A stretch of DNA of 64,000 bases from Octopus vulgaris (taxonomy: Eukaryota): NCBI GenBank assembly GCA_951406725.2, contig OX597815.1:94488001-94552000 (forward strand). The letters run 5' to 3'. The first letter of the stretch is position 1. Each line of letters opens with the position of its first letter. Position numbers and translations under genes: made by a program. Positions 1,726 to 62,184 of the stretch are shown here, piece after piece. The notes under the pieces were generated by a model, which was not told the origin of the DNA, made no database searches, and saw nothing but the letters and a program-made list of their open reading frames with translations.

Positions 1726-3099
1726 GAAAGGGGAAAATATTGTCATATTTGTGGAGGATAGTAATGGTGTTACACATGAAAAAATAAATAACAAGTAAAA
1801 CGAGATGCACATTCTCTCTCTCTCTTCCACCCACAAAGTTTGTCAAATGAAAATAAGTCTGTATTTCTTAACGATAGATATATAAGTGGAGAACAATTTA
1901 CTTTTTTTCAAACAGGCGATCTTTGGATGATTACACGAAAGAAAAACTGCAGGACAGCATTATGTGATGAAAAGGGATGCTTTTTAATCCGAAGCTATCG
2001 TATAGGCATGCGAAGGAAAGAAGGTAAGTCACCTGCGCATCGCTACTGCTACACAGGTTGTCCGTATGTCCTCTAAAGCATAACTGGAGGTTCTCGGATT
2101 TAAATCGACCACGAGCAGGGGAAGGCATATGATGCTATATGTTTTAGCCTTAAAACTGAGGAGAAAACGAGAAGACAAAGTCAGTGCGATACACGCCGAC
2201 TCGTAGTTTCATAGTATTTGAGATGAAGAAAGATGAAAGTCACCGTAAAAAATATTGATAACGGTTTTGATCCTTGACTTGTAGTCATTAAAACACAACG
2301 TGGGCAAGTAGTCAATGCTGACATCGATTTTGCAGATGTGTCATCGGATGGGATTTTCGTGTATATACAAGTTCGAGTGACATCTTCCACAAGACTACAA
2401 AACGATTTTCGAACTGTAGCTTGTAACGGGAAATGAGCAAAAAGACTTTACAATTAGTCGTTCAGTGTATAAATCAGAGATGCTACACATGTGGTAGCAG
2501 CCCTTAAAAGTAAAAATAACAAAACAACAAACCAAGAACAAAAACCATCAACAGTGATAGATTACTGTTCCTGGGTTACCACCTGGAGCCCTTCCAGAAA
2601 CGATAAAATACATGAGCAAATTTTCGGTTTCATTGGGCATCTCACAATATTGGCAATATTGAATAGGTACTCAACAAATCTCTGTATCTATAAAAACATT
2701 TGATAAAACATTTGCTAAAAAGAAAAAGATGATAATTAAATAAATACACACGTATACAAGCAGAAACATTAAAACTCTGAGAAGCACAAAAGTAAGATAA
2801 CGCACCAGCAGCACCACCACTTACCCCAACACCACTAAAACATCAACAACAACAACAACTATAACAACTCATCGTATGCTTGTGTAATGTACAAATACGT
2901 GATAGAGATATGAATCAACTTCAGACGAAAGAAAAAGAAGTACTACACAAAAGTGGGTGCATCACTATTCAAGAAATTTATCCAAGACAGCGAAAGTAAG
3001 ACAAGTGATATAATTCTGGCCGGTATGTAGTGGGATGTATGCCCTTCCCAAGAAAGAATATGGTACATATATGCTTATACATAAATATATACATACATA

Positions 3100-3330
<231 letters not shown>

Positions 3331-3828
3331 ACATTTCATCTTATGGTTCTCGACCATGTTTTGCCTATGGACCTCTTTGGTTCCTATTTTTCTTTACTGG
3401 ACTCCCATAGCCATTCGATGTTTAAATAAAACCCTGTTATGTTTATATGATTCAATATTATTAGGAATTGCATAATAAAAATCTTTAAATATTTTTTGTA
3501 TTGTAGAAATATAACCAGTTTATTGCACATAAATTTTACCAACAAAACCTTATATGTTATCCCTAAGGGCCATATGGACCCGGGTTGAGACATACTGATT
3601 TAATCGATAATCATTAACTTCTTCGTAGAGATGTTTAGTTATTGAGGGATTATGACCCATTCGTTGAGCCCATCAACTACTTATTGCCATGAACCCTCAA
3701 TAACTAAATTTCCCAAGCAAGAAACTAATGATTATGGATTAAATGATTAATAATTCTCATACTTACCTTTGTTAATTTTCTTCAAAATGAATAGACATAA
3801 CTTCTTTGAAATTGTCACTCTGGAAGGG

Positions 3829-3915
<87 letters not shown>

Positions 3916-4123
3916 ACATATACGCACACACATATATGTTTATATGTATGTATGCATGTATGTATGTATATTCTTTATTTGTGAATTAATGCCATTGTTT
4001 TCATGTTAAGAAGAGTAGGAAAATATCCAAGTATCTTAACAATTTTTCAAGCCGATCACATGGAGAGAGGCGTTCACCTACATTTTGCGGTGTTGAGCAC
4101 TCATTCCATCGTTCTACATTTAC

Positions 4124-4164
<41 letters not shown>

Positions 4165-4165
<1 letters not shown>

Positions 4166-4350
4166 GGAAAGTTTACGAAAATAAATTAAAGACGAAGACA
4201 GGTGGTGTACAAAACAAACAGTTGTATTAGTATAGCGCTCAGGAATAGAAAAAGTATTTTACGTTTCGAGCCTACGCTATTCTACAGAAAGGTACACAGA
4301 AAAAACCAGGAGAGAAAAAATGTGTGTAGTGGCTAACGATCTATCATGGC
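4165..4350 (-). repeat. Interspersed repeat containing a minimal hammerhead-like motif (probably Penelope pLTR-derived); second copy at 8940-9115 (+)
   Basis: 4165-4350 is the reverse complement of 8940-9115 (shared GACGAAGACAGGTGGTGTA, ACGTTTCGAGCCTACGC, GTGTAGTGGCTA). Confidence 0.65.
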
Positions 4351-5089
4351 GTCTGAGACATACATATATAAATATATATATATGACATGATATATAGCTA
4401 TATGCATATATACATACATTTATGTACATACCTACATCTATATGTATACATACATGCAAAAATGGGTACAAGACATAAAAAAAACGTTGCCCACAATGAG
4501 AAACGAAAACATAAAAATAAAAACATGGAAACGAACTTTTTTTCAAACAACGAAAAAAAATACAACACAAGGAATATTCCCCTTCTTCAGTCGTCCCTGT
4601 TTCATCTACTCCGCGTTAAGAAGGTAAGGACAAGACGCGACTAGTCCTTACCTTGATATAAATATAGATATTCGCTTTAAGCGTTAAGGACTTAGCGAAA
4701 ACCTTTTTTTACAATAGTAGACTCTGACTTCCCACGTCACCGTAAATACCATTCAGTCTTCAACAGATCTACTCTGAAATTATCCTACTTCTTTCCGCCC
4801 AATATAAAATCGATTGTTACCTCATCTAATAAGCGTAAGCTTAATTCCTACTACATAAACAACGCCTATAGGCAGAGCAGTCAAAATATATATAATCATA
4901 ACATAGGTCACTGCAGCGATAACACTAACACGGACCATGATAGCATATACTACACCCGTAACCCTAGCACTGCAACCAGCATAAACCATGATACGAATAT
5001 CCTCGCTTCCGAGGAAGGTCGAAGTACGCCTAAAACGAATGTTAATACTAATAGCACTACTATTGCTATTGCTAATGCTGCTGCTGCTG

Positions 5090-5166
<77 letters not shown>

Positions 5167-5205
5167 GTACCTTAATGTTGAGTGAAAATGTCTAATACAA
5201 ATATA

Positions 5206-8200
5206 TCAAATAATGGTGTTAATGAGGCTGGAACCAAAAGTGAAAGCCTTTCGCCCGGCAGTTACCCTGTGGTTGAGAAGCGCAGGCCTGGTTGTACACA
5301 AAACCAGAGGCAGAGAAAAAGGCGAGATAAGTAGGTAAACCGAACAGTAATTGAATGCTGGATCAGGAGTGAACCCAGTAGAAGGGGATTCCGACAAAAC
5401 TGAAAGCAAGATGGAATGAGGACTCTTCTAAACAAGTGAGGAACGGTTAACCGACCTGGCAAGAGCAGTAAGAGCAAAAGGGTGGTTAACAGACATGCAA
5501 ATAGAAAACATAAAAAGGAAAGTAGAAAGTAGAAATAATACTTCACCAACAGATAACGTGCCCAGTGAAAGCAGAAAAATGAAAGGCTATAGTGAAGAAG
5601 TAGAGCAAAGTTAAATGTAAATGCATTCTCAGCAAATGAAGCAGAAGTAATAAGAAGATCTATACCAAAAGAATACGATGATGACTAACAAGACATAGCG
5701 AGGACACTGTACCGATATATTCGAGAAGACCAGAATCAAGTATCCTCCAACCTGAGGTACATTGATCGACGAAAGATCAAATTTGAAATCGTAAAGATAG
5801 ATTCAATTCTCGGGCTATTCCAGACGAGAAATATAACTGAAACTATTTGGGCTGCAGTTATGGTTGCTGCAGATAGAGTTGGATACAAAACAAAAGAACA
5901 AAGAGAATGTAAAGAACCATACTGACGTAGACGAATTTGTGAGAAACAAAGAAAGTTAAAAAAGACATTTACAACAAGTTGATAGATTGAGAAGCGGGGA
6001 ATTGCAGAACGAAAGCATAAGAATAAAACTTAAAAGAACGTATGGAATAAGAGATAAAGGTTATGATGTGACTTTGGAAGAATTGAAACAAAGAGTAGTA
6101 GCAATCAAAGCAAAACTGGAAAGATATGACAGCAGAAAAAGATAGTTCAGGCAAAACAGATTGTTTGAAGCAAATCAGAAGAAACTGTTTCAGGAACTAG
6201 ATGAGCAAATACACGTAACAATGATACCAGATGCAGAGGAAAGCAAGTGATCTGGAGAGGAATATGGGACCAACCTGTAGAACATAATGATGAAGTGGAG
6301 TCATTGCACGAAATCCAGGATAGATTAAGAAATATAGAAATTCAAGAAGACATAAAGATAACTACATAAATTATAAAAAAGTATTTAAGAACATTCCCAA
6401 ATTGAAAGATCCCAGGACCGGATAGGGTCTAAGGTTATTGGATGAAGAAGCTGAGAGGGATCCTTGAAAGGATAGCCCAACAGCTACATGAGTGTTCGCA
6501 GGAAGGTGCAGTACCCAGCTGGATAATAAAGGAGAAGATATTGCTACGTTTCAAGGATCCTGGAAATGGAAATGTTGCATCCAACTTTAGACCAATAACA
6601 TGCCTTCCGCTAACGTGGAAACTAATGCCAGGTGCTTTAGCCGGTGAACTCTGCAGATACTTGGGAAAAAGTGGGCTGCTACTCTTTGAACAGAAAGGGT
6701 GGCGAAAAGGAGCCGGGGAGCGATGGTTCAGCTCTTAATTAATAATCTAATTATCAGGAATTGCAAGAGAAAACTTACAAGCCTGAGCATGGCATAGCTT
6801 GACTATCGCAAAGCATACGATATGCTACCACAATCCTGGATAATAAGAATAATGGAAATGGATGGAGTAGCAGACAATATGAGAAACATATGGAATAGCA
6901 TGAAATGCTGGAGAACGGAATTGACAGCAGGGAAGCAAGTATTAAGAGAGGTGAAAATAAAGAGAGGAATCTTCCAGTGGGACAATGTGTCCCTACTGAT
7001 ATTTGTGGTGGGAATGACCCCCTTGAGTGAAATACTACAGAAAACAATGTTGGGATATGATTTGGGAAGAAGTAAGGGAAAACTAAACCACATGGACGAT
7101 CTGAAGCTCTTCACAAAATATGAGGCAGAACTGGACAGCTTAATCCAGTCTATGCGGATTTTCTCCAATGATATTCAGACGGAGTTTGTACTCTCAAAAT
7201 GTGCTAAGATGATGATGAGACGAGGAAAACTTGCCAGGACAGAAGGCATATGGATACCATGTGGTGAAATGATGTAAGTAATTTAACCTCAATCCAGCTA
7301 TAAATACTTGAAAATACTTGAGGCAGATGGAATCAAACACAATGACATGAAGGAAAAGACAAAATGAGAGCGCCTGCGGTGAATGAGAAAATATTGACTT
7401 CAAAGCTCAATGCTAGAAACATAATGTCGGCAATAAACTAGCGCAAAGTCGCTGTGGTTCAGTATGATACTAGAATCTAGGAGTGGACAGAGGAGGAGCT
7501 AAAGGAAATGAACAGGAAGTCAAGAAAGCTCCTAACGATGCATGGAGTACATCATCCACGAGCAGACATTGATCACGTATACATGAAGAGAGCAAATGGA
7601 GGAATGGGACTGATGAGTTTGGAAGACTGAGTACGTATCGAGAGCTTAATGAGATACATAGTCCAGAGTAAGGAAGCCTTGTTAGTGATAGTTAGGAAGG
7701 AGGGAATATTGAGAGCAGAAAAAAAGGGAAAGCAAAGGAAGAAGTACAAAAGGGACATGAAGAAGAATTACGCAACACGGGACTACACAATTAATTCCAT
7801 GTAGCCACAACAGAAATTGCTGGAAAAAATAGCTAGAAATAGCTGATGAAAGGAACCCTGAAAAAGAGACTGAGAGTTCTATACTGGCGGCGCAGGACCA
7901 AGATTTGGCTACGACCTGGAGGGTCAACCTTAGGAATGAGCAAGTGTCTCTGCTTTACCGCATCTGCAATAGAGTTGATGAAACCTTCACCCACATCACG
8001 AACGAATGCCCTAGACTTGCCCCAACACGACCAGTTACCGAAAGTGCTTCGTAGGAAACTGTCCGAAAAGTGGGGCTAGAGAGAGGCAAGACGTGGTATG
8101 AGCACAAACCGCTGAGACTGGCAGAGTCAGAAACTAGCAAAACCTATGGGATACCGGACCTACTGGTGGTTTACAAGGTGCACTATATATGCTATATAGT

Positions 8201-8553
8201 TCATGTTGCATGCCCCTTTAACCCACGAATAGTCAAGAGGGAAAGCGAAAAAGTAGATAGACACAACCCTCTTAAGTACAAAATAGCTCGGCTATGGAAA
8301 ATGAAGAAGATAGTGCCAATTATTGTTGGGTCCTTGGGAACAGTATCAGAAGACATCAAGAGAACTATAAAGGAAATAGAGCGCCCAGTAGAACTGTTAC
8401 AAAAGGTTTGTATATTTGGCAGGGCCAGAATAACCAGGAAAGTATTAGCTGAAAGAATGGATTGCATGGTGCCGTAGGCTGCAGGTAGTTAGCCCGCTGC
8501 ACATGCAAGACTCCAGTGGCTCCAATAAAACTTGTGATAAAGACAAAATAGTA

Positions 8554-24129: not shown

Positions 24130-24253
24130 ATACCGTTAGGGCACAGAAAGTGTGCCTATAGCCAGCTGGAGACGATGCTCTCCTGGGGCTACACGCTACA
24201 GTAACACCCACCCTTAGTGGTTAGCCATATTGAAATGGCAAATATACCTCACA
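24130..24253 (+). repeat. 5' terminal direct repeat (124 bp)
   Basis: ATACCGTTAGGGCACAGAAAGTGTGCC...GGCAAATATACCTCACA; matches 29820-29943 with 2 substitutions (CACGCT/CAAGCT, TGAAAT/TGAGAT). Confidence 0.95.
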
Positions 24254-24626
24254 TTGTCGTGCAGTTACTGTTTATACCTCGTTCAGAGATTTATTATTGC
24301 TTGTATACACTTTTTCGAGATCAGTGACGAATAGTTACTGGAAAAAGGATATTATTATTTGCATTGGGAACTCCTTTCATCGAAAACCGGTGTTTTGTCA
24401 CTCGTCTAGGGACCCCTCTTTCATCTGCGTATTGAGAAGTTAGCTGCCTATTTTGTTGAGTGAGTTCGTTTTTTGTTCGTCGTTGTTTGTGTTTGCTCGT
24501 GAATTTGAACAGTTGTCCGTTGTGTGACAGTAATTTTCGCCCTACGGGGCTGAAAATTCTGTGTATAAACATTGTTATTACCTTCGGGGTAATTTTTTTG
24601 AAAAATTGGTTCTCATAATTTGAGAA

Positions 24627-26060
24627 ATGGAGTTCGACTTGGCGTCGAGGAGCGACTTTCCCGTGATGGGAAAAGGCGAACAGAAGGATATCGAGGTTAG
24701 AAAACAGTCTTTTTCGGCCGCAGTGGGCGGAACCGTAACGGAAGTGGAGTTCAAAATAGAACAGTTGTTCGAATACCGGAACTTGGTCAAAAAGGAAGGC
24801 AACGAAATAAAACTGGTACCGCCGCAAGCGATATTACAGGAAATAAAGGCCAAGACAGTCGTGTACAAGGTTTACAGTAACAAAGAGAAAAAAAATAATG
24901 GACGTGAAGAACGAAATAGTAGAGAAGTGCTTGTCCCCGGTGTGGAGCAAAATTCGCTACCTCGGTCGAGGTGCTCGCAGCGCTACCGTTGAAGCACATT
25001 TCGACTCGCCTGACGTGGCAAGAGAGATTTCATCAATGACCTTAAAAAATGAGGACATTATGTTACTACCTACCTATATGGGCAAAAGAACTGCGAAACT
25101 ATATGTGGAAGACATACCAAGAGGATATGATATAATGTGGGTAGCAGCGGCGGTTCTGCACGACGTAGAGCAGAAAGTCTAAATTCTGCAGATGAAAAGG
25201 AAAGAGGAGGTAAACTGGAAGGGACAAGCGCTCGAATTCCTCGTTCAAGCAGAAATTAATGTGCTAGAAAACTTACCCGATAGGTATTTATTGAGGATGG
25301 AATTTCAATGAGAGTGTTAGTGGAGGGGCGCAGACCTAGGTGTTTCAAATGTGGTGAAAAGGGTCACGTCCGCTCGAACTGCATAAAAAAAAAGAAAAAC
25401 AGCGAAGCCCCTCCTCAAAGTGCTTCAAACACAGAAAAAGAGAAGGCGGAAAAAGACCCCAAGACTGCGACAAGGAAGGGAATCGAAACGGAAGATAAAA
25501 ATGAACAAATGGAATTTACACAGGTGACACATAAAAGAAAAAAAGAAAATACCCTGGACTCCCCAAACAAAGAAAAAATCAGCAAACACCGCAGAGATAC
25601 ATACAAAACAAATTCCCCAGCCCTACCCCCACGGCACTGTATTCATTGGAACACAGTTCGCCAAGCCCCACCCCATAAAACAAGATCTGAAAAAATTGAT
25701 AAAAAAAAAAATGAAAAGATTGTAGCATTCGACGAGAGGAACGATAGAGTGTTTAAGTATTTTAAATTTTCAAAACTGAAATTATTCAGTAAGTCTGCAG
25801 ACACTAAGTCAACCACTCGTTTTGCAAAACTAAAGGAAGACGAGTGGAAGGAAAAAACACTCCAAGAACATTTAAAAAATAACCTTATCAGAGACGTAAC
25901 TAACGAAATACTGGAGGGCAAACTTACTATAACCCCGGCAACCACACCTACCCAGAGCGCGATGGCAACGCCCGTTAAGAGCCCTGCAGCTACGACCACA
26001 AGGGAGGAAGAAGGGGAAGCATGCAGATTTAAACTGTCATGCTCCCTGTCCCAACAGTAA
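24627..26060 (+). pseudogene. ORF1 (gag-like nucleic-acid-binding protein with zinc knuckle), disrupted
   Basis: ORFs 24627..24992, 24898..25182 and 25308..26060 can be joined by a frameshift in an A-run (~24890), a stop (25180) and a frameshift (~25290). EGRRPRCFKCGEKGHVRSNC is CX2CX4HX4C. Confidence 0.8.
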
Positions 26061-26089
26061 GTTTATTTATTTTTTTTCTCTCTCCGACA

Positions 26090-29000
26090 ATGGCAAAGCT
26101 GGGTTGTGTGAATGTGCGTGGAATGGGGTCGAAATGGAAAAAAAATTGTCTCCTGAACGACCTCACGACACACGGAGTGGACGTAGCTATTGTAACCGAG
26201 TCCAAGATGAACGGGGCCCAAGCGTTCTCGCCTCTTCTAAATGGTTTCGAGAAATTTATTTCTCCTAGCCGAGGAGGAGGAAGGGGCTTGGCAGTCCTTA
26301 TCAGGAAGAGCTTGGACTTGCAGGTAAGTACTGTCTTTCTGGACCCAGAAGGCAGGCTGGTCGTTCTGGATGTGACCCACGTAAGTAAACAGTCCTTCAG
26401 GTCGGTAGCTGTCTACGCTCCGAATGAGTGTAGGCAGTCGGGTTTTTTTCGGAATCTGGAGCACTTTTTAGTGACGTCGAAAACGGTAGTCTTAGTAGGG
26501 GACTTTAACACTGTCCTCGAAGCGCGGGTCGACAGTGTTGGCTCAACCAATAGGAAGGGGAACCCTAGCCTCAAGGGTCTTCTAGAGAGCTTTAATCTAG
26601 TAGACCGTTATCGACTGGATGAGCCGAGCGTTCCACAGTGGACGTGGAGTAACAACGACGGCTCACTCAGATCGTATATAGATAGGATATTCGTTAGAAA
26701 AAGAGATAAGGATACGTTTAGTTGTCCACAGTTTCACATTGTGCCTTACACGGATCACAAATTTGTGACTTGTAGGGTGCAATTAGATAAGTGCCATAGA
26801 CAGGGACCCGGGTACTGGAAGCTGAACAAGTCTATTTTGAATTGTGAAGGCTTCCGTATCCGGATTAAGGTGTTAGTACAGAGGGCATTATGTGGCACCA
26901 TCATTAACAATAGATGGTGGCACTCCCTCAAAAGAGCCATTCGTTCAGAGTCCATTAGATTTAGTAATCAGCTAAGGTTAGATAGGTCTAGGATAGAGGA
27001 CGATTTAGTTAAGAATCTAAACGAGGCAATGGAATCTGGCTCTGCATCCGGAGTGATGGCGGCAAGGACGGTATTGTACCGTCACCTTAACTCCAAACAC
27101 GAAGGTTGCAGAGTTAGAGCTAAGCTACGCGCAGGGAAACGAGAAGGTATTAACGTTGCCGGATGGGCCCGTCGAGTGGAGAGTCAGAGAGGTAACAAAG
27201 CTTCAATCAAGTCTTTAACTGACGAACAAGGACACAAGATCTATGGACAGGAGGAGATGCAAAAGTTTCTTCACTAGCATTTCGCCCGCAAGTTCGGGGT
27301 GGGTGGGTCGCTGGAGCGGGGGAATGCCTTAAAGGGCTTCCTAGCCGGCGGACCGCGGCTCTCGGGGCGTGAGGGGGAGTGCTGTGAAGGAGCGACCACT
27401 CCCGCGGAGATAGAGGGGGTACTGGCCGGATGCGCCGGGGAGAAGTCGCCGGGGTTGGATGGTCTGCCCTACGAGTTTTATCAAAGTATGCCAGACTTGT
27501 TCGGGGGAATACTGGCAGGCGTCTACGCGAACTGGCAGCAGAACGGGAGAATTCCCAGCTCTGTAAGCCGGGGAGTGGTGACGCTAATCCAGAAAGACCC
27601 GAGCAAGGGGAATAACATTAGTAATTACAGGCCCATAACTCTACTCAATGTAGAGTTAAAGATTTTGGCCAAGGTGTTGGCAAAAAGGTTGACGACTGTC
27701 GTGGAGAAACTTGTAGGGAAAGCACAGACATGTGCAATTCCAGGCAGGTCGATCCAGGACAATCTTCACCTTAGATAGGGTGGGTAAATTAACCGGCAAG
27801 AGCGGGGTAATGGTCCATTTAGACCAAAGTAAAGCGTTCGATAGGGTAGACCATAAGTACCTGGCGACGGTCCTCGAAGCGGCTGGACTGGGCCCTGAAT
27901 TTCGCGGGTGGATCTCCGCTATGTATAGCGGCATCAAGTCCAACGTCCAGATAAACGGTTACCTAACGGAACCGTTTTCGATCGAATGTTCAGTTCGTCA
28001 AGGGTGCCCCTTGTCACCACTTTTGTACGTGTTGGCTCTCGAGCCATTGCTGCGAAAATTGGAGAGGCTGGGAAGTAACCCGGATGAGATCGGAGGCGAG
28101 AGGACGGTTTCTGCTTATGCGGATGACGTCACCCTCATCGTGTCCAACGAGGCTCAGCTACCTTGTGTAGAAGATGCTATCAGAGGATACGAGGCGGTGG
28201 CAGGAGCAAAAGTTAACAAGGACAAGTCGATTGGCTTACGCCTCGGCACCTGGAGGAGCAAGTCGATATCGTCCAGTGCCGTGGGACACTGGACAGATGG
28301 GTCCTGTTAAGTTGCTAGGAGTTTGGTTTGGGCCAGACTCCCAAACGGAGAGGAATTGGAGTGAGGTGACGGACAAGGTGGAGGCCATAGTACGGACCTG
28401 GTCCGGAAGGTTTCTGTCCTTGAAAGGAAGGGCGGAGGTGGTACAGATGTTCATTGCATCTGTAATCACTCACCGCCTGACCGTTGTCCCTTGCCCCGAT
28501 TCATGGCTTAGCAAGATGGAGCGAATCCTTTTCCGCTTTTTGTGGAAGGGAGGAAAGCCACTTGTGAGGCGCTCCGTTTGCTGCCAGGAACCGTTAAAGG
28601 GTGGGTTAGGAATTCCTTGGTTGATGATGCGCAGACATGCGTTGAGGCTGAAGCATCTCTGGCACCACCTGGTGATAAGGTGTGGAGTCCGCTGGCAGGG
28701 GAATTTTTCCCGAGACCGGCTTCCTTAGTGAATATTAAACCCGGTTGCATCAAAAGACGGAATCTGACTTTATGGCAAAAGGAGTGCCGACAGCCACTCA
28801 CGCTGATCCACAAGGCGGGCAAGGCCGGCTGCTAAAATACCACCTCGGTATTTTATAGCAGGCTGGTAGAGGCAAAGAACGACGACGTCCTAGGAGGGGT
28901 TCTGGGGTTCGACAAAGACCAGCTTACCAACCTGTTTAAAAAGACTTTCAGGACGGGGTATTTGGATAATTTCCAAAAATCCCTGGCCTGGCAGTGTTAT

Positions 29001-29462
29001 AGGAATGCTTTACCTGTTCGCGAGAAGTTATCGCGGCACGGAATTTCAGTGCCACCGACATGTCCAAGATGCGGGTTGGACGATGAAACCGTCCAGCACG
29101 CTTTTGTACACTGTCGGCAGTTGTCAGACTTGATAAGTTACGCAGAACACGTGTTATCGCATCTGAGACGAGTACAGCTGTCGGCTGAGTCTATGATTAA
29201 GATGATACCGCCAACTGGACTCTCGAAGGAAGGTGAGGCATGTTTTCACTGCACGGTTGCAGTAGTAAAAGAATGCATGTGGCGTACAAGAATGGAAGGA
29301 GTCGCAATAGGATCCTTTGTCTCAGGCCCCGGCTTGCTCACTTACTTCAGATATCATCTGAAGAGCAAAATGGGGCTGGAAAAGAAGACCTTACCACGAG
29401 GTGTGTATGAAAAAAGATGGAAGGAAGTGGCGAAAAAGGTGGATGTCAGAAACCCAGTTTAA
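26090..29462 (+). pseudogene. ORF2: APE endonuclease, reverse transcriptase and C-terminal zinc finger, with a few stops and frameshifts
   Basis: APE: NVRG, TESK, VYAPN, GDFN, IDRIF, TDH, PGYWKLN. RT: KSPGLDGLPYEFY, NYRPITLLN, LDQSKAFDRV, VRQGCPLSPLLY, AYADDV. C-terminus: CPRCGLDDETVQHAFVHC. Lesions at ~27275, ~27775, ~28300, ~28670 and ~28833. Confidence 0.93.
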
Positions 29463-29701
29463 CTATGGATGGAGAAGAGGAAAGGAAAGCTGCGGGGCCT
29501 TATAGGTTGCCGGGGTTTAAAATATATCGGTAAGATTTCAATCTAATGTAATGTTATATTAGTCAATGCAAAGGACAATTTAAATACAGTTTTTTGTATA
29601 ATGAATAATCCATATATTTTGGAAATTTCTAAACGAACCACTTAACTGTTTTTTGTATGTATGTCCTGTATTGTTCTTCTATGTACTGATTTTATAATCA
29701 T

Positions 29702-29707
29702 AATAAA
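29702..29707 (+). promoter_or_regulatory. Candidate polyadenylation signal AATAAA of the L1/Tx1 element
   Basis: AATAAA after a U-rich 3' UTR, 240 nt after the ORF2 stop. No poly(A) tract follows. Confidence 0.5.
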
Positions 29708-29723
29708 GAATTAATCGAAAACC

Positions 29724-29785
29724 GGTGATTGTCGTACGCTGATGACGGGTCAAGACCCAGAAACTGCAGTCCGTGTGTATCACTT
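29724..29785 (+). ncRNA. Type I hammerhead ribozyme in the 3' region of the L1/Tx1 element; predicted cleavage after GUC (29771)
   Basis: Core CTGATGA 29739-29745. Stem II GGGT(CAAG)ACCC 29747-29758 with a C.A mismatch next to the core. GAAA 29760-29763. Palindromic minimal stem III CTGCAG. GTC 29769-29771. Stem I CGTACG/CGTGTG, extended by GGTGAT/ATCACT across an internal loop. Confidence 0.8.
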
Positions 29786-29819
29786 AGGTTGACGAGGGGA
29801 GGATGACCTCCCTTTGCAA

Positions 29820-29939
29820 ATACCGTTAGGGCACAGAAAGTGTGCCTATAGCCAGCTGGAGACGATGCTCTCCTGGGGCTACAAGCTACAGTAACACCCA
29901 CCCTTAGTGGTTAGCCATATTGAGATGGCAAATATACCT

Positions 29940-29943
<4 letters not shown>
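29820..29943 (+). repeat. 3' terminal direct repeat (124 bp)
   Basis: Copy of 24130-24253; ends in ...CCTCACA and merges into (CA)n. Confidence 0.95.
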
Positions 29944-30031
<88 letters not shown>

Positions 30032-34047: not shown

Positions 34048-34911
34048 CTAGCAGAATTGCCCGGCGTTGCTCGGGGCTGAATTGCTTGAAAGTACTGTTA
34101 ATGATTGCACTGAATTATGATGATTATTCAGACAAATATTGATATAAGTTTACGGTGGGAGATAATGACTTAACGATCAAACGTGTGCCATTGCATTGTT
34201 TTGGGGCAACCAAATTTCTGATGAGCATTATAGGGGCACCAACTTTAAGTTTGAGAATGTGTGGTGGTAGTCCGGGGTGCTCAAAGGAATTGAGTACCTC
34301 TATTGGATAGTTGATGAAGTCGTCTGGGTTAGGAGTTGTATCGATAGACTGATATACATAGACTTCCTCAGGAATGAGTTTTAGCATTTCATCATTAATA
34401 TGGTGAACAGTTTTATTCCTCGGGGCCAGTATAGCCTTTTGGCCAATCCAATCCATATTCTGATAATTAGCTTGTGAACACTGCATCTCTGAGATCAGCT
34501 GCGAACACTGCATCTCTGAGATCAGAAGGCGTCTTAACAATGGTACAAATGGAATCGATGGCAATATTACCATTTTCATCCCCTGGTATTTTGCCTTCGC
34601 CAAGTGCAAGGAGGGTGTGAGGAAATGCTGCTGATGTGATATTACGTCGCATATGAGCACGCATATTGGTGTGAAGTTTGAGAGTTACTTCCCTTTATTA
34701 AAAAAATATGCATTAAAATGGAAAAAATGATGGTAAATTATTTTTAAAATCGTAGACTCATCGTAGACGCGCGCTAATACCCAGAAGGGCTCGATATGAA
34801 TCACGACTAAAAGATACCCACTTTTGGTTAAACTGCATCGCCAAATGTGGGATTAGTTAGGAATGTAAATCGGAGTAGATAGACACACAACCTTTCTTTT
34901 ATATATAAAGA
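34048..34911 (-). mobile_element. Non-autonomous Helitron with PIF1-like helicase fragment
   Basis: 5' TC at 34911, 3' hairpin CCCGAGCAACGCCGGG plus CTAG ending at 34048, A|T target. ORF 34124..34660 has AILAPRN, GLPPHILKLKVGAPIMLIRNL and CNGTRL. Confidence 0.9.
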
Positions 34912-49003: not shown

Positions 49004-52000
49004 GGCACACACACACACCTTGCGTATATATATACATATATATATATATAAATATATATGTATTCCCAACCACATGGTTCTGGGTTCAGTACTATTGCGT
49101 GACACCTTGGGCAAGTGTCTTCTGCTATAGACTCGGGCCGACCAAAGACTTGTGAGTATATCTGGTTGACGTAAACCGTAAGAAGCCCGTCTTATATATG
49201 TATATATATAATTATAGTATATTCTGTTAAGAACATAGTAGAATACAGTATAAAGCTCGCTCGTGCATTTTCACATTCAAACTGTGCTTTCCAGTAGTAG
49301 TATTATATGTATTTCCAGGTTTGCGTTTGGGCATCTGTCGTGTGTGAATAGATAATTGAAAAAACTGGAGTCAACAAGAAGGGTACGGTTGGACATTTGT
49401 TTTTTAATCACTACTTCTGCCTAACTTCTGCAAGGAGAAGCTTTGTAATAAATGTTTTTCCTGTCCCTCCAGGAGCAACGAGGAAGAAGATTCGTCCCTC
49501 ACGTTGGCGTACACTGTTAATAATAGTTCTGTAGGCCTGCAGCTGGTCCGGAAGTAATTTAGGCTCATTTTTAACAATGTACTTTGAAAGCGCTTGAGTG
49601 TCGTAGGTTGTTTCATGAATGACAGCAGTGGGAAGGCTATTTGACCCTGACCTGAATGCTTGTGGCAGGCCATACGTCGACAATTCATTTCTACCCAGTT
49701 TAGCAATTCTGTCTTCAATGTGAATGAGTGTTTTGTTATAGATTTCATTGCTGATACTCTCCATGTCAGGATAGAGCAGTTGAGCTTGGCGCTGAAAGTC
49801 TTCAGCCAGGTTGTCTCTATATTTGAGCCATTGAGTGGCCGGATCACACAGTTCGCATGCCTGTAGTAATACTGCAAATAGTACCATGAGATTTTAGGTG
49901 ATTGTGATAAAGCAGCCTCTCCTAAAGTTGCATCCCATTGTGCACCATCTTCTAACAGACCTTGTCGATAGCAGGCTTCTCTGTATGTTGTGCAGGCATG
50001 TCCATGAACGGTTTTTAGGGCCTAGAAAGACGTTGGCCCTCTGACCTCATGCAGTAGTAGACGAAGGTAGAAACACTCTTGTTGAGTGGGATGCACTATG
50101 TATACTCGCCCAAGGCAAGTGTGAAACTTAATGCCAGGGTATCCATGAACATTTTAACCTGCTTTCCGTGGGGCCCATTTTTTCCCATTCCAAGTGTAGT
50201 ACGATGGAATCTGTGGATACAGCAAGGTTTGAGCGAATGGATCCACTTGACAAAGCTTGAAGAATGCAGTGAGTGTGCTATTCCTTGGTTCCTCTGCCAG
50301 CAGAGAAGCATTAGCATCGGTGAACTACACTCTTTAACCATTTTCCAGGTGCACTGCAAGCTGTTGAATGGTGGGGTGTCGTTGGTGAATTGGAAAGCCA
50401 AAGATGCGCCAGAAAACCTCGTTGCTACTTATGTACCGTCCCACCTTGATAATGCGTCACCTCATCCTGGCAGTATTCTTGTTGAAGTCCAAACATTGCA
50501 GCGTCAGAACCCTTGTTTACATATTTGCAAACGTACTTGATGGATTTAACGGAGTTGCAAAACTCAACGTTGATGTGAGCATTGAAAGTCTTTGACAGGA
50601 GTGGGCAGTATGGAACAATCCATATATTATCAATATCGTGCTGTCCGATAGTTGCTGTGAAACCTCCGTCTCCTGGTTTTCTGCGTCTGTATGATGGATA
50701 CCCATCAGCACCTGTCTGAGTTTCTTGTAGGAACCTCCTTGGAAATCCTTTTGAACATATGCTGTCCTTCAAGCATAGTGAGTTTATGTTGAATCCACGT
50801 CCACACGGACCATGTACCATGTTTGCTTTAACTATTTCGTATAGTTCTTTGTCTAAAGCTGGATCAGGAAGCTCTGCAGAGATTATGTTGTCGATGTCAT
50901 TGGAATTGATCTTCGCTGAGAGGCAAAGCAAGATATGAGCATGTGGAAGGCTCCTTTTTTGCCACTCGATTGTGTACATGTCACATTGTATGGGCCTAAA
51001 GACTTGCCCTTTTTGTATGAGCTCCATGAGAGAGATTAACTTCAGATGGAAAACTCGGGCGTTGAGATTCCGGTTCGAATGTAAGGCAGGTTTGAAAGTG
51101 TTCCCAACAGTTATTAGTTGTAGTGATAGAGTGTTTATGCCGAATATGTACGTATGCATGTATATATATGTATGTATGCCTGTATATATGAACAAAATCC
51201 ACTGAGAAGGCTTTTGTTGGTCTGAGGCTACCGCAGAAGACACATGCCAAGTCACCACACAATGGGACTGAACCCAGGACCATGTGTTTGGAACGTAGTT
51301 TGTTACCACACAGCCACACCTGCCCCAATGTATGTGTGTGTGTATGTGCGTATGTGTGTATGGGTAGATATATTATGCATGTATATCTGTGTATATATAT
51401 GTGTACATATTACATGTACATCTATATATATGCATCTACACATAAAATACAAAATACAAAGTTATATCTTGATATCGCTAGTGATAACAATACTCAAAAT
51501 ATATAATAGACTGGAATTGTAGGCCCGTCTCTTGCAATTTCGATCAATTGGATCTTGTCCTCCCTCTTGTATAGAAGTGTACGGCTGCAGCGAAGTTCAT
51601 TTTTGGACTTTCTTCTATCGAAGGCATTTTAACAAAAATTCTTCCGTAAAGACGGTGAAAATATTGTCAATTCCCCCAAACAGGGACACAATTCAATTTT
51701 TAAACAATAACCAAAACCCCTTCTCCGAAAGGGGGAGGGTTACGGTTTACAATTATTTAACAAATGCAACACAACAACGTTTCCCTGACGAGGAACCAAC
51801 ACACGTGATTACAATAGTCAAACAGTAATAATAATAACAACAAACCTTTTTAATTTATGTGAAGCCACTTATTCAAGTTCAAGTCATTGATGCAATTTTA
51901 TACGAATTGCTAATACACACACACATAATAAGGGTGAAAAATTGAATATTAATTTGATTAATATGAATTGAAAACCAGTGGTGTAGCATATAAGACCATA

Positions 52001-58872: not shown

Positions 58873-59089
58873 CACACCTACACACCCACAAACACACACC
58901 CACATACTCACGCGCGCGCACTCATATTTAAATATATTTCCGAAAAAATTCTTGTTACAGTCACAATATTGCAAAAAAGGATTTCAAATCAATATTTATT
59001 GACTATATAAAAAGTGGTTTTGAAAGTTTCTTTTTATATAACTGGTAAATTTTAATTTAAGATCTTTTATTTAGTATGTATATGTATAT

Positions 59090-60567
59090 CGTGCAAACGA
59101 GCCCTTGCAAAACAGCTACAGCTTCTTTTTCAGAGCTTCCTTGCAAGTGGTAAGTTCCCAGTCAAATTGAAAGAGGGGGTAATATGCCCTATCCATAAGG
59201 GAGGTAGCAGAGCAGATGCTAAAAATTATAGGCCTATCTCTCTGACCTCACACATCAGCAAAGTCATGGAACGAATAGTCCGCAAGAAACTAATCATGTT
59301 CCTTGAAGAAAATGACTTGTTGTCTGACACCCAGCATGGATTTCGACCAGGTAGAAGCTGCCTAACACAGCTCCTGCAACACTATGACTGGGTGTTAAAA
59401 CAGCTACTAAATGGCTCAAATGTGGATGTAATATATCTCGACTTTGCAAAAGCCTTTGATAAAGTCGGCCATGGTATGATCTGTCACAAGCTGCGTGGTC
59501 TCGGCATAGGCGGAAAATTCGAGAGTGGCTGCACAACTTCCTAAAAGACAGAAGACAGGCAGTTGTGAGCAATGGAGCCACCTCCAAGGAAACACAAATA
59601 ACAAGCGGTGTTCCACAGGGTACTGTCTTGGGGCCACTGCTGTTCATAGTGGCCCTTTCAGACATGCCTTCAGTTGCTACGATGGCCACCCTTGCTAGCT
59701 ATGCAGATGACACAAAAGTCTCCCACACAATACAAAACCCTGAAAATATTGCGCATCTGCAACAGGAGTTGGATAAAATATACAGGTGGGCGGAGGACAA
59801 CAACATGCAGTTTAATGCAGGTAAGTTCCAGGTCCTGCGCTACCGGTACACAAAGGTAAACGACGTGAAGACTGGATACACTGGCCCAGGAAGAATTGCA
59901 ATCCCTGAGTCAAAATCAGTGCGTGACCTAGGCATTGACATGAGCAATGATGCATCTTTCCAAGTGCATATTACTAATCTGGTGATAAAATGCAGACGGC
60001 TAGCTGGATGGATACTCCGAACTTTCAGAACGAGAGAGAAGGAGACACAATGCAAAATATCAGCTACTGGGAAAGACTGAAAGTATTAAACCTCTTCTCC
60101 CTAGAGCGGAGGCGGGAGAGATATGCGGTGGTATACAACTGGAAAATCCTGGAGGGTCTTGTCCCAAACTTTGGCATTCAAAGTTACCCCAACCGCAGAA
60201 CGGGGCGCCACTGCATGGTACAAAAGATTCCAACATCACCATCAAAATACAGGACCAGATACTGCAACAGCTTGGGTTTCAGAGGACCACAGCTCTTTAA
60301 CATCCCCCCTAAATGCCTAAGAGACTTACATGGTGTGGATGTGGGTTTCTTTAAAACTAAACTGGATCTCTTCTTGTCGGGAGTCCCAGATGAACCTACC
60401 TCACGACAGGAGACGCAGATGCGGGCAGCAGCATCGAATTCCCTTGTTGATCAAGTGCCACGTATCAGAGGTGGATTCACATATTAGTGTAGCTCATTCA
60501 GCGGTGGTGCCCCAGCATGGCCGCGGCCTTCGGGCTAAAACATTTTTAAGGATTTAAGGATTTAAGG

Positions 60568-61385: not shown

Positions 61386-62184
61386 TTGGGTTGGCAACTA
61401 AGTTCCAGACGTTTTCATAAATTTTGGAATTTATTGCGGTTTTAAATGTGGGAATCTATTGTTTTCGAGAATTCTATTTTTGAATCATTTTGGAATCTAT
61501 TTAGTATTTTTTCTAGTTAATTTCTTTACCGAATCGTTACTGGCGACAAAAATGGTGCCTGTACATCAATAATGAAGCAGCGTAAGGAATGGCTTAGCTC
61601 CGGTAAACAAGCGACACCGCTCGTGAAAGAAGATCTTCATCCGCTTAAAACGATGTTGTGCGTAAGGTGGGACTGAGAAAGGATTATCCATTACGAAGTG
61701 TTAGAATGGAACCAAACGGTCAACGCGGAACTCTGTGTTCAACAGATGGAACGACTCAACACGACTATTCAAGAGAAAAGACCTAATCGTCAGCATGGAG
61801 TTCTACTGCTGCACGACTACGCCCGCCCTCATATTGCCAATATGACCAAGGAAGCCATTCAAACGCATGGCTGGAAAGTGCTGCCACACCCGCCGTACTC
61901 TCTTGATATGGCACCAACGGATTTCTACCCTTTTCGATCTCTTTCAAATGCTATGCGCGGAGTTTCGTTCAATACTGATGTAGAATTGAGAGCTTGGTTG
62001 AATCAATTTATCGAGACGAAATCGGGTGATTTTTACCAACGAATTATTGAAAATCTTGTTGAACGTTTGGAAGTAGTTGTAAACAACAAAGGCGATTACA
62101 TTATTGATTAATTAGTTGTTATTTATTTTATTAAACCTTCTAAAAAATTTAAATTAAAAAACGGCGGGAACTTAGTTGCCAACC

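Follow-up and report, generated by a model that had tools for sequence, protein, structure and literature searches.

What owns the hammerhead ribozyme at positions 29724-29785 of this stretch of Octopus vulgaris DNA, and how is it related to the LINE that ends just upstream of it? We analyzed the whole stretch of 64,000 nucleotides (the window; contig OX597815.1). The junction anatomy leaves us highly confident of the answer: the hammerhead is the ribozyme of an approximately 355-nt non-coding retrozyme-type repeat, and the upstream LINE is a site-specific insertion into that repeat. The first-pass annotation had assigned the ribozyme to an unnamed element; such an owner exists, but it is the retrozyme-like repeat and not the adjacent LINE. 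As a whole, the best explanation combines a retrozyme ribozyme, a LINE insertion, dimer cleavage and an snRNA-type start site, and we consider the combination quite likely to hold. The features concerned, all on the plus strand, are the following.

24130..24392, upstream part of the host retrozyme-like repeat, a 5'-truncated partial tandem that starts in (TA)n; it joins the hammerhead part in LINE-free copies
24130..24253, copy 1 of a 124-nt direct repeat, 98% identical to 29820-29943; redundancy of the host repeat, which spans about 1.35 units
24320..24326, ATCAGTG, located 59 nt upstream of the target ATCG; a candidate proximal sequence element of the snRNA type (putative function)
24379..24392, 5' target-site duplication of 14 bp, with the predicted transcription start at its first A
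24393..29713, LINE of the L1 group (Tx1-type by behavior), full-length but broken, about 5.3 kb, without a poly(A) tail
24627..26060, ORF1, frameshifted, with a CCHC zinc knuckle (PF00098)
26090..29462, ORF2, with APE endonuclease (PF03372), reverse transcriptase (PF00078) and zf-RVT (PF13966); one stop and frameshifts
29702..29707, the sequence AATAAA at the LINE 3' end, conserved in copies
29714..29727, 3' target-site duplication, which overlaps the beginning of hammerhead stem I by its last 4 nt
29714..29943, remainder of the host repeat downstream of the LINE, with the hammerhead and a hairpin-rich region, up to a (CA)n/(TA)n tract
29724..29785, type I hammerhead with C·A at 10.1/11.1 and a palindromic stem III; predicted cut after 29771
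29820..29943, copy 2 of the 124-nt direct repeat, paired with 24130-24253

Elsewhere in the window, the frames at 34124-34684 and 49404-51372 resemble what we take to be Helitron helicase fragments, and the pieces at 6798-8477, 59056-60487, 61677-62111 and 4696-4900 look like fragments of other RT elements, a mariner-type transposase and a piece of Penelope.

The hammerhead and its host repeat

The type I core (C3 U4 G5 A6 N7 G8 A9, G12 A13 A14 A15, U16 H17) and its three helices are all present at 29724-29785, with CUGAUGA at 29739-45, GAAA at 29760-63 and GUC at 29769-71. Stem II has three G-C pairs (GGG/CCC, 29747-49/29756-58) and a hexaloop UCAAGA; at its base, position 10.1/11.1, the Watson-Crick pair is replaced by C29746 facing A29759. 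Stem III is the self-complementary ACUGCAGU at 29763-70. Stem I consists of a proximal helix CGUACG/CGUGUG (six pairs including two G·U), a 3x1 internal loop with UGU at 29730-32 opposite U29778, just as the first-pass annotation had described it, and a distal helix GGUGAU/AUCACU. A relaxed type I descriptor matched this site only in the 64 kb, both strands included, and nothing in 30 dinucleotide shuffles, so that the intact core noticed earlier is real. The Rfam scan that had been proposed as a check gave no hammerhead in the window at the gathering score and none at E<=10. Among 10 loci scanned with Rfam, one sister copy of the G-C type (L039) matched Hammerhead_HH9 with 35.8 bits (E 1.3e-5, cut-off 52), and another sister copy, scanned alone, had no match. 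Left to fold freely, the window hammerhead takes a structure different from the active fold (z=+0.45).

The motif had been placed among minimal metazoan hammerheads, but its architecture is that of the canonical metazoan type I, given in the excerpted text of PMC4209133 as helix I of 6 bp, helix II of 4 bp and a short palindromic helix III, with dimer-assisted cleavage. A minimal Penelope hammerhead would have a helix II of 7-8 bp, a helix I of 4-5 bp, no or minimal helix III and an extra base before helix II; the geometry found here is not of this kind, and we rejected that assignment.

The repeat was characterized with a genome search using 29700-29945, which gave 3685 first-look candidates, of which the best 40 were scored and 30 fetched. 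Among these 30 best-scoring loci, 21 are free of the LINE, eight have a LINE 3' end at the target and one has other sequence. In the LINE-free copies (21/30), the sequence of 24254-24392 continues directly into the hammerhead. The unit is non-coding, 354-355 nt long, with a GC content of 0.39-0.45, and two natural tandems (L003 and L023) have hammerheads 354 nt apart. Direct tandems with two hammerheads account for only two of the 30 first loci, those hammerheads are partly decayed, and the window has a single one; the cleavage in tandem transcripts that had been suggested thus does not fit this particular copy. Individual copies form partial tandems whose ends lie at (TA)n or (CA)n, at either of two preferred points some 50 nt from each other; nine of the 30 loci have an inverted partner. 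The repeat shows the traits of Penelope-type insertion (partial tandems, inverted 5' partner, microsatellite targets and tail extension) as well as those of a non-LTR retrozyme unit (non-coding, 150-450 nt, multicopy, with a type I hammerhead and a GC content below 50%). For the region that follows the ribozyme (29786-29930), the folding z-score is -3.18. The junction of an empty site (about 24370 to 29714) is present in contigs of two other organism labels, and one contig across the LINE 5' junction fell one base short of our bridging rule. The 124-nt repeats were also considered as a long target duplication or as a LINE LTR, and both options were rejected, since they are the unit redundancy of the host repeat.

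A LINE lineage at one site of the repeat and at U2 genes

The LINE has the organization of the L1 group, with an ORF1 and an ORF2 that contains APE, RT and zf-RVT, and the solved endonucleases nearest to its own are those of L1. Protein searches returned unnamed relatives together with Argonauta and Acanthosepion proteins and no named Tx1 reference, and the label Tx1-type comes from the insertion behavior. This was studied with LINE end queries devoid of target sequence (3' ends, 40 scored of 515 candidates and 30 fetched; 5' end, 40 scored of 189 and 30 fetched); the sampled ends, being chosen by score, represent the youngest copies. All 30 of the 3' ends and all 30 of the 5' ends lie at the target, which is the Tx1 trait of sequence-specific insertion with a fixed duplication. 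Behind the 3' ends, 27 enter the repeat family of the window, two enter a stacked LINE behind the same duplication and one enters a sister hammerhead repeat, approximately 60% identical, at the homologous spot. The duplication is 14 bp long, sometimes 16-17, and it overlaps stem I by 4 nt, so that the ribozyme remains whole.

In the 18 LINEs for which both ends were paired, the two duplications mostly share host-specific variants (L070/L047, L076/L034, L083/L039, L088/L051). The exceptions are L065/L060, whose flanks belong to different subfamilies, and two more pairs that differ by 1-2 nt. The LINE copy in L060 is shortened at its 3' end at a microhomology with the target and this, together with the missing poly(A) tail, suggests priming by RNA-target pairing. 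In the mechanism that we propose, the LINE endonuclease would cut an ATCG-N5-YGG site in the repeat, so that the LINE would land 14 nt behind the transcription start, and reverse transcription would be primed by pairing of target-derived RNA with the target DNA. Several loci (L140, L161, L162, L054, L057, L071) have head-to-tail stacks of LINEs, from up to three related families, with the same duplication in front of them.

A second target came to light in a sister family of LINEs (83% alike; 40 scored of 289 candidates, 30 fetched). Nineteen of its 30 3' ends enter the repeat, three enter stacked LINEs behind a repeat-type duplication, five lie at the +1 of U2 genes and three go elsewhere; of the latter, one is stacked with an unclear spacer, one is joined to a Penelope fragment and one is off-target (L158/L171, with a 15-bp duplication). 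Rfam places full U2 genes, from model position 1, directly after the LINE. At both the U2 start and the repeat the site has ATCG, with YGG at positions 10-12. Four full-length 5' junctions were seen in U2 arrays, and each of them shows the same order: first the U2 promoter, then the 14-bp duplication of U2 sequence, next a retrozyme-type leader of 14 nt, and finally the LINE. These leader-bearing LINEs occur under two unlike U2 promoter types, and the four copies probably descend from one capture event. The simplest reading of the leader is that the donor LINE sat in a retrozyme that was transcribed from the A of ATCG. In the spacer of one U2 tandem array there are short retrozyme-like pieces (L167:1224-1285 and 2949-3012), and L170 (minus strand, 2500-7150) contains an inverted retrozyme piece, a 5'-truncated sister LINE and then ATCG fused with the 3' half of an ORF of Penelope, a joint that is possibly a template switch.

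Upstream of the target there is a hexamer that also stands upstream of snRNA genes. This hexamer, ATCAGT, which we first saw by eye and then tested on U1 and U5, occurs at -57 to -61 relative to +1 upstream of U2 (22 of 24 distinct regions, those without it being the two LINE ends), U1 (19 of 19) and U5 (12 of 15). It lies at -57 to -62 of the target in 43 of 52 repeat upstream regions, most of the misses being truncated, with a background of about 0.001 per six positions. Resemblance to U1, U2 and U5 extends to the hexamer and its distance; when a 25-column matrix of snRNA promoters was applied, the window site came only 488th of 127,952, the flanks of the hexamer adding nothing. Since ATCAGT stands at the same distance upstream of the target as of the U1, U2 and U5 genes, we regard the insertion point of the LINE as a probable start site of the snRNA type. 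The repeat would then carry an snRNA-type promoter, with transcription starting 58 nt before the cut, at the A of ATCG, and the LINE, 14 nt behind that start, would be transcribed from the host promoter; from the promoter and leader sequences we lean slightly towards these steps. The snRNA genes themselves (L202-L234) have in common ATCAGT at about -58 and, 10-25 nt downstream of the genes, a box of the CAGA/TAGA type; two or three promoter types, unlike one another, exist for U1 and likewise for U2.

Two other accounts of the LINE have to be weighed against these junctions. The hammerhead begins 10 nt past the LINE end and stands behind 27 of the 30 3' ends, and the 124-nt repeats lie on both sides of the whole unit, which could mean that the LINE possesses the hammerhead as a 3' processing ribozyme of its own, with the repeats as the terminal repeats of one composite element. 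We regard this as highly improbable, as the host-matched duplications largely refute it: the LINE 3' ends are 97-100% alike but the hammerhead regions behind them only 71-100%, matching the host subfamily upstream. Moreover, 5'-truncated LINEs have the same duplication, LINE-free copies are the majority of the top matches, and sister LINEs in U2 genes have no hammerhead. The other account concerns the choice of site, which could come purely from the sequence preference of the endonuclease, with U2 as a by-product of ATCG-N5-YGG, the hexamer coincidental or irrelevant and the LINE using a promoter in its own 5' UTR. The ATCG and YGG common to both targets, the off-target copy with its 15-bp duplication and a promoter matrix that lends no support beyond six bases all speak for it, as does the lack of any complete LINE end at the 20 U1 and 15 U5 loci searched. 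It does not explain why the captured leader starts exactly at the A of ATCG, with no homology to the U2 join, or why the hexamer lies at the snRNA distance in two repeat families that are only about 60% alike, and we find it somewhat doubtful in this pure form. The absence of LINE ends from those U1 and U5 loci does indicate that tethering to the promoter is not needed for targeting; hence, the endonuclease probably reads ATCG-N5-YGG, and the promoter would be a benefit rather than a guide.

Returning to a LINE that inserts at a probable snRNA-type start site, we put forward a broader proposal only tentatively, since it could well fail: octopod retrozymes might be units driven by snRNA promoters, and an L1/Tx1 lineage specialized on the start site might switch between retrozyme and U2 through the same +1 context, using the host promoter and, as an optional 3'-end maker, the hammerhead 58 nt downstream. 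The AATAAA at 29702 could end LINE transcripts before the hammerhead, and the LINE copies in U2 spread without the ribozyme. If the proposal is true, there would be three levels of parasitism (Penelope, retrozyme and LINE), and LINE insertions would map retrozyme promoters.

The ribozyme family: covariation, cleavage and spread

An alignment of the family was built from 90 loci, which gave 74 hits and 66 distinct rows; four truncated or chimeric rows were dropped and 62 aligned. The core is intact in 50 of the 62. Across these rows 91.8% of the cells are paired, against 21-41% in slid controls, and 10 of the 25 hammerhead pairs have changes on both sides, figures that come from related rows with non-independent cells and thus few independent events; with this, the covariation check suggested by the first-pass annotation came out in its favor. 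The 3-8 pair is CG in 45 rows, UA in 11 and UG in five. Position 10.1/11.1 is C·A in 45 of the 62 rows (a share inflated by the first 30 loci, selected by likeness to the window), G-C in 13, G·U in two and U-A in two, which makes C·A a subfamily trait. The choice left open earlier between a decay mutation and a family trait is therefore settled for the trait, and decay of the window copy was discarded as the origin of the mispair. A decay-like change does exist in this copy at another place: U29776, where 40 of the 45 C·A rows have C, is a private change that lowers the computed pairing of the proximal stem I from about 0.98 to 0.3. Being solitary and weakened in stem I, the window copy probably cleaves poorly. 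Sister copies have a UAC/U bulge and a CAAAUA loop, presumably as in the Schistosoma ribozyme.

Of the 62 rows, 49 have a perfectly palindromic stem III, spelled in five ways; in three it is self-complementary with G·U, and in 10 it is broken. Its two central bases, unpairable within one hairpin, change on both sides in four rows, in keeping with the earlier idea that the palindrome is suited to dimer cleavage. In folding calculations the pairing probability of stem III in the monomer is 0.0, and the active dimer fold has -40.9 kcal/mol versus -24.0 kcal/mol for two active monomers, i.e., approximately 17 kcal/mol better. When two natural tandems were folded freely, the dimer stem III formed in only one. 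Cleavage as a dimer is supported by the covariation, through which the C3-G8 pair, stem II and the palindrome of stem III are maintained. Considering this covariation and the known retrozymes, the family ribozyme probably cleaves as a double hammerhead, which, held by the self-complementary stem III, would cut tandem transcripts into unit-length RNAs and circles.

As for spread, we assume that Penelope elements would mobilise the repeat. A search for the partner by its GIY-YIG domain (best 150 of 6136 candidates scored; 12 longer stretches and the L170-joined family also compared) found no Penelope element with a pseudo-LTR or terminal repeat homologous to the repeat in 72 (42 + 30) Penelope-containing loci. 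A young Penelope family (L121-L125, L127; 16 of 148 GIY-YIG matches) has an intact 781-aa RT-GIY-YIG frame and an overlapping upstream frame of up to 479 aa, and each of its two terminal repeats contains a minimal hammerhead, UUGAUAA. The retrozymes close to L128, L242 and L247 seem to have inserted independently in (TA)n. Other families of hammerhead repeats (L035, L006:1020-1130, L242, L247), 60-70% like that of the window, have other stem III palindromes, and their stem II begins with either U·U or C·A.

The C·A pair and the unpartnered repeat each invite a different reading of this spread. In the excerpted text of PMC3088659, pair 10.1/11.1 is called the most conserved after 15.1/16.1 and a mispair there is a criterion for rejection, only U·U being named as tolerated. 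This conservation, and core lesions in eight of the 45 C·A rows, would suit a catalytically crippled hammerhead that spread without any need to cleave. Yet within the C·A rows the next pair is split almost evenly between G-C and A-U, N7 and loop II are where common variation is found, with the consensus of the core maintained, and C·A or U·U is also found at the stem II base of other octopod hammerhead repeats (L006, L035, L242); a crippled subfamily therefore seems unlikely to us. The LINE could be thought of as the autonomous partner, given its tight physical association with the retrozyme, the 72 Penelope-containing loci without a matching terminal repeat and the mention of LINEs as possible partners in the available text of PMC7229834. 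However, repeat and LINE have no common 3' end, new repeat copies do not lie at the target of the LINE, and the microsatellite ends, the two preferred ends about 50 nt apart and the inverted partners (9/30) are hallmarks of Penelope in the sections consulted of PMC8557442, all of which makes a mobilising LINE very unlikely. The reading that we keep is a repeat of presumed Penelope-type mobility with a probably functional family ribozyme, in which the hammerhead alone is an ordinary metazoan retrozyme ribozyme with an unusual closing pair. It provides a natural example of C·A at a site that is generally regarded as obligatory, and motifs of this sort are discarded by standard searches.

Comparison with known systems

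We found no description in the literature of a LINE targeting a hammerhead repeat or the +1 of U2, although Repbase, which lay outside the search, may already contain the family. There is nothing on such targeting in the available parts of PMC10886601, PMC6155905 and PMC7761336, and the accessible text of the animal retrozyme papers does not state which promoter drives these elements. The LINE marks one nucleotide of the repeat, the same lineage marks the +1 of U2, and the same hexamer lies upstream of both, which makes the promoter question directly testable. A ribozyme repeat is added to the known targets of LINEs, with natural target switching between a mobile RNA and an essential snRNA gene.

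The closest relatives of the repeat are the metazoan non-LTR retrozymes, as portrayed in the excerpts available of Cervera and de la Peña 2020 (PMC7229834) and Li et al. (bioRxiv 10.64898/2026.07.22.740005). They are alike in the non-coding unit of about 355 nt (those of mussel have 350-390 bp), a GC content of 39-45%, the type I hammerhead, the presence of monomers and short tandems and the Penelope elements in the same genome. The octopus repeat, known here from DNA alone, differs from those described there in the C·A at 10.1/11.1 of the window's subfamily, the candidate snRNA-type promoter and the role of dedicated LINE target; the words "promoter", "snRNA", "Tx1" and "cephalopod" do not occur in the accessible text of the bioRxiv paper. 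With the canonical type I ribozymes of PMC4209133, as far as its excerpted text goes, the family shares the 6-bp helix I, the four positions of helix II, a helix III of 1-2 bp with a palindromic loop and a U3-A8 covariation, found here in sister subfamilies. It differs in having C·A for G10.1-C11.1, and the letters of the loop and bulge have changed too (UGU/U, UCAA(U/G)A).

Target-specific LINEs of the Tx1 clade, such as Tx1L into Tx1D, Tx1-Mar into Mariner-N4 and Keno into U2 (parts of PMC4494074 and PMC4640811), are likewise APE-type elements that use one site of a multicopy sequence, mobile elements and U2 included, and stack in tandem behind the duplication; "Sat" (satellite) and "U5" are among the targets in Fig. 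3 of PMC4494074. In the present case, the target is a hammerhead retrozyme, the U2 site is the +1 and one lineage uses both targets. The U2 site of Keno lies inside the gene. Newt satellite 2 is a hammerhead repeat reportedly provided with an snRNA-type promoter, and we know of no LINE that targets its start site. It comes from a distant phylum and is similar to the octopus repeat in its length (about 330-350 nt) and in dimer-assisted cleavage (excerpts of PMC6155905). The arrangement of the octopus LINE can also be set beside that of R2 and R1. These elements are co-transcribed from a host gene, with a host promoter and target-derived leader and trailer RNA, and R2 carries its own 5' HDV-like ribozyme, whereas here the ribozyme belongs to the host repeat and lies 3' of the LINE. 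Tx1 elements that target mobile elements or U2 being already known, the relation among LINE, retrozyme and U2 is a new form of known site-specific retrotransposition.
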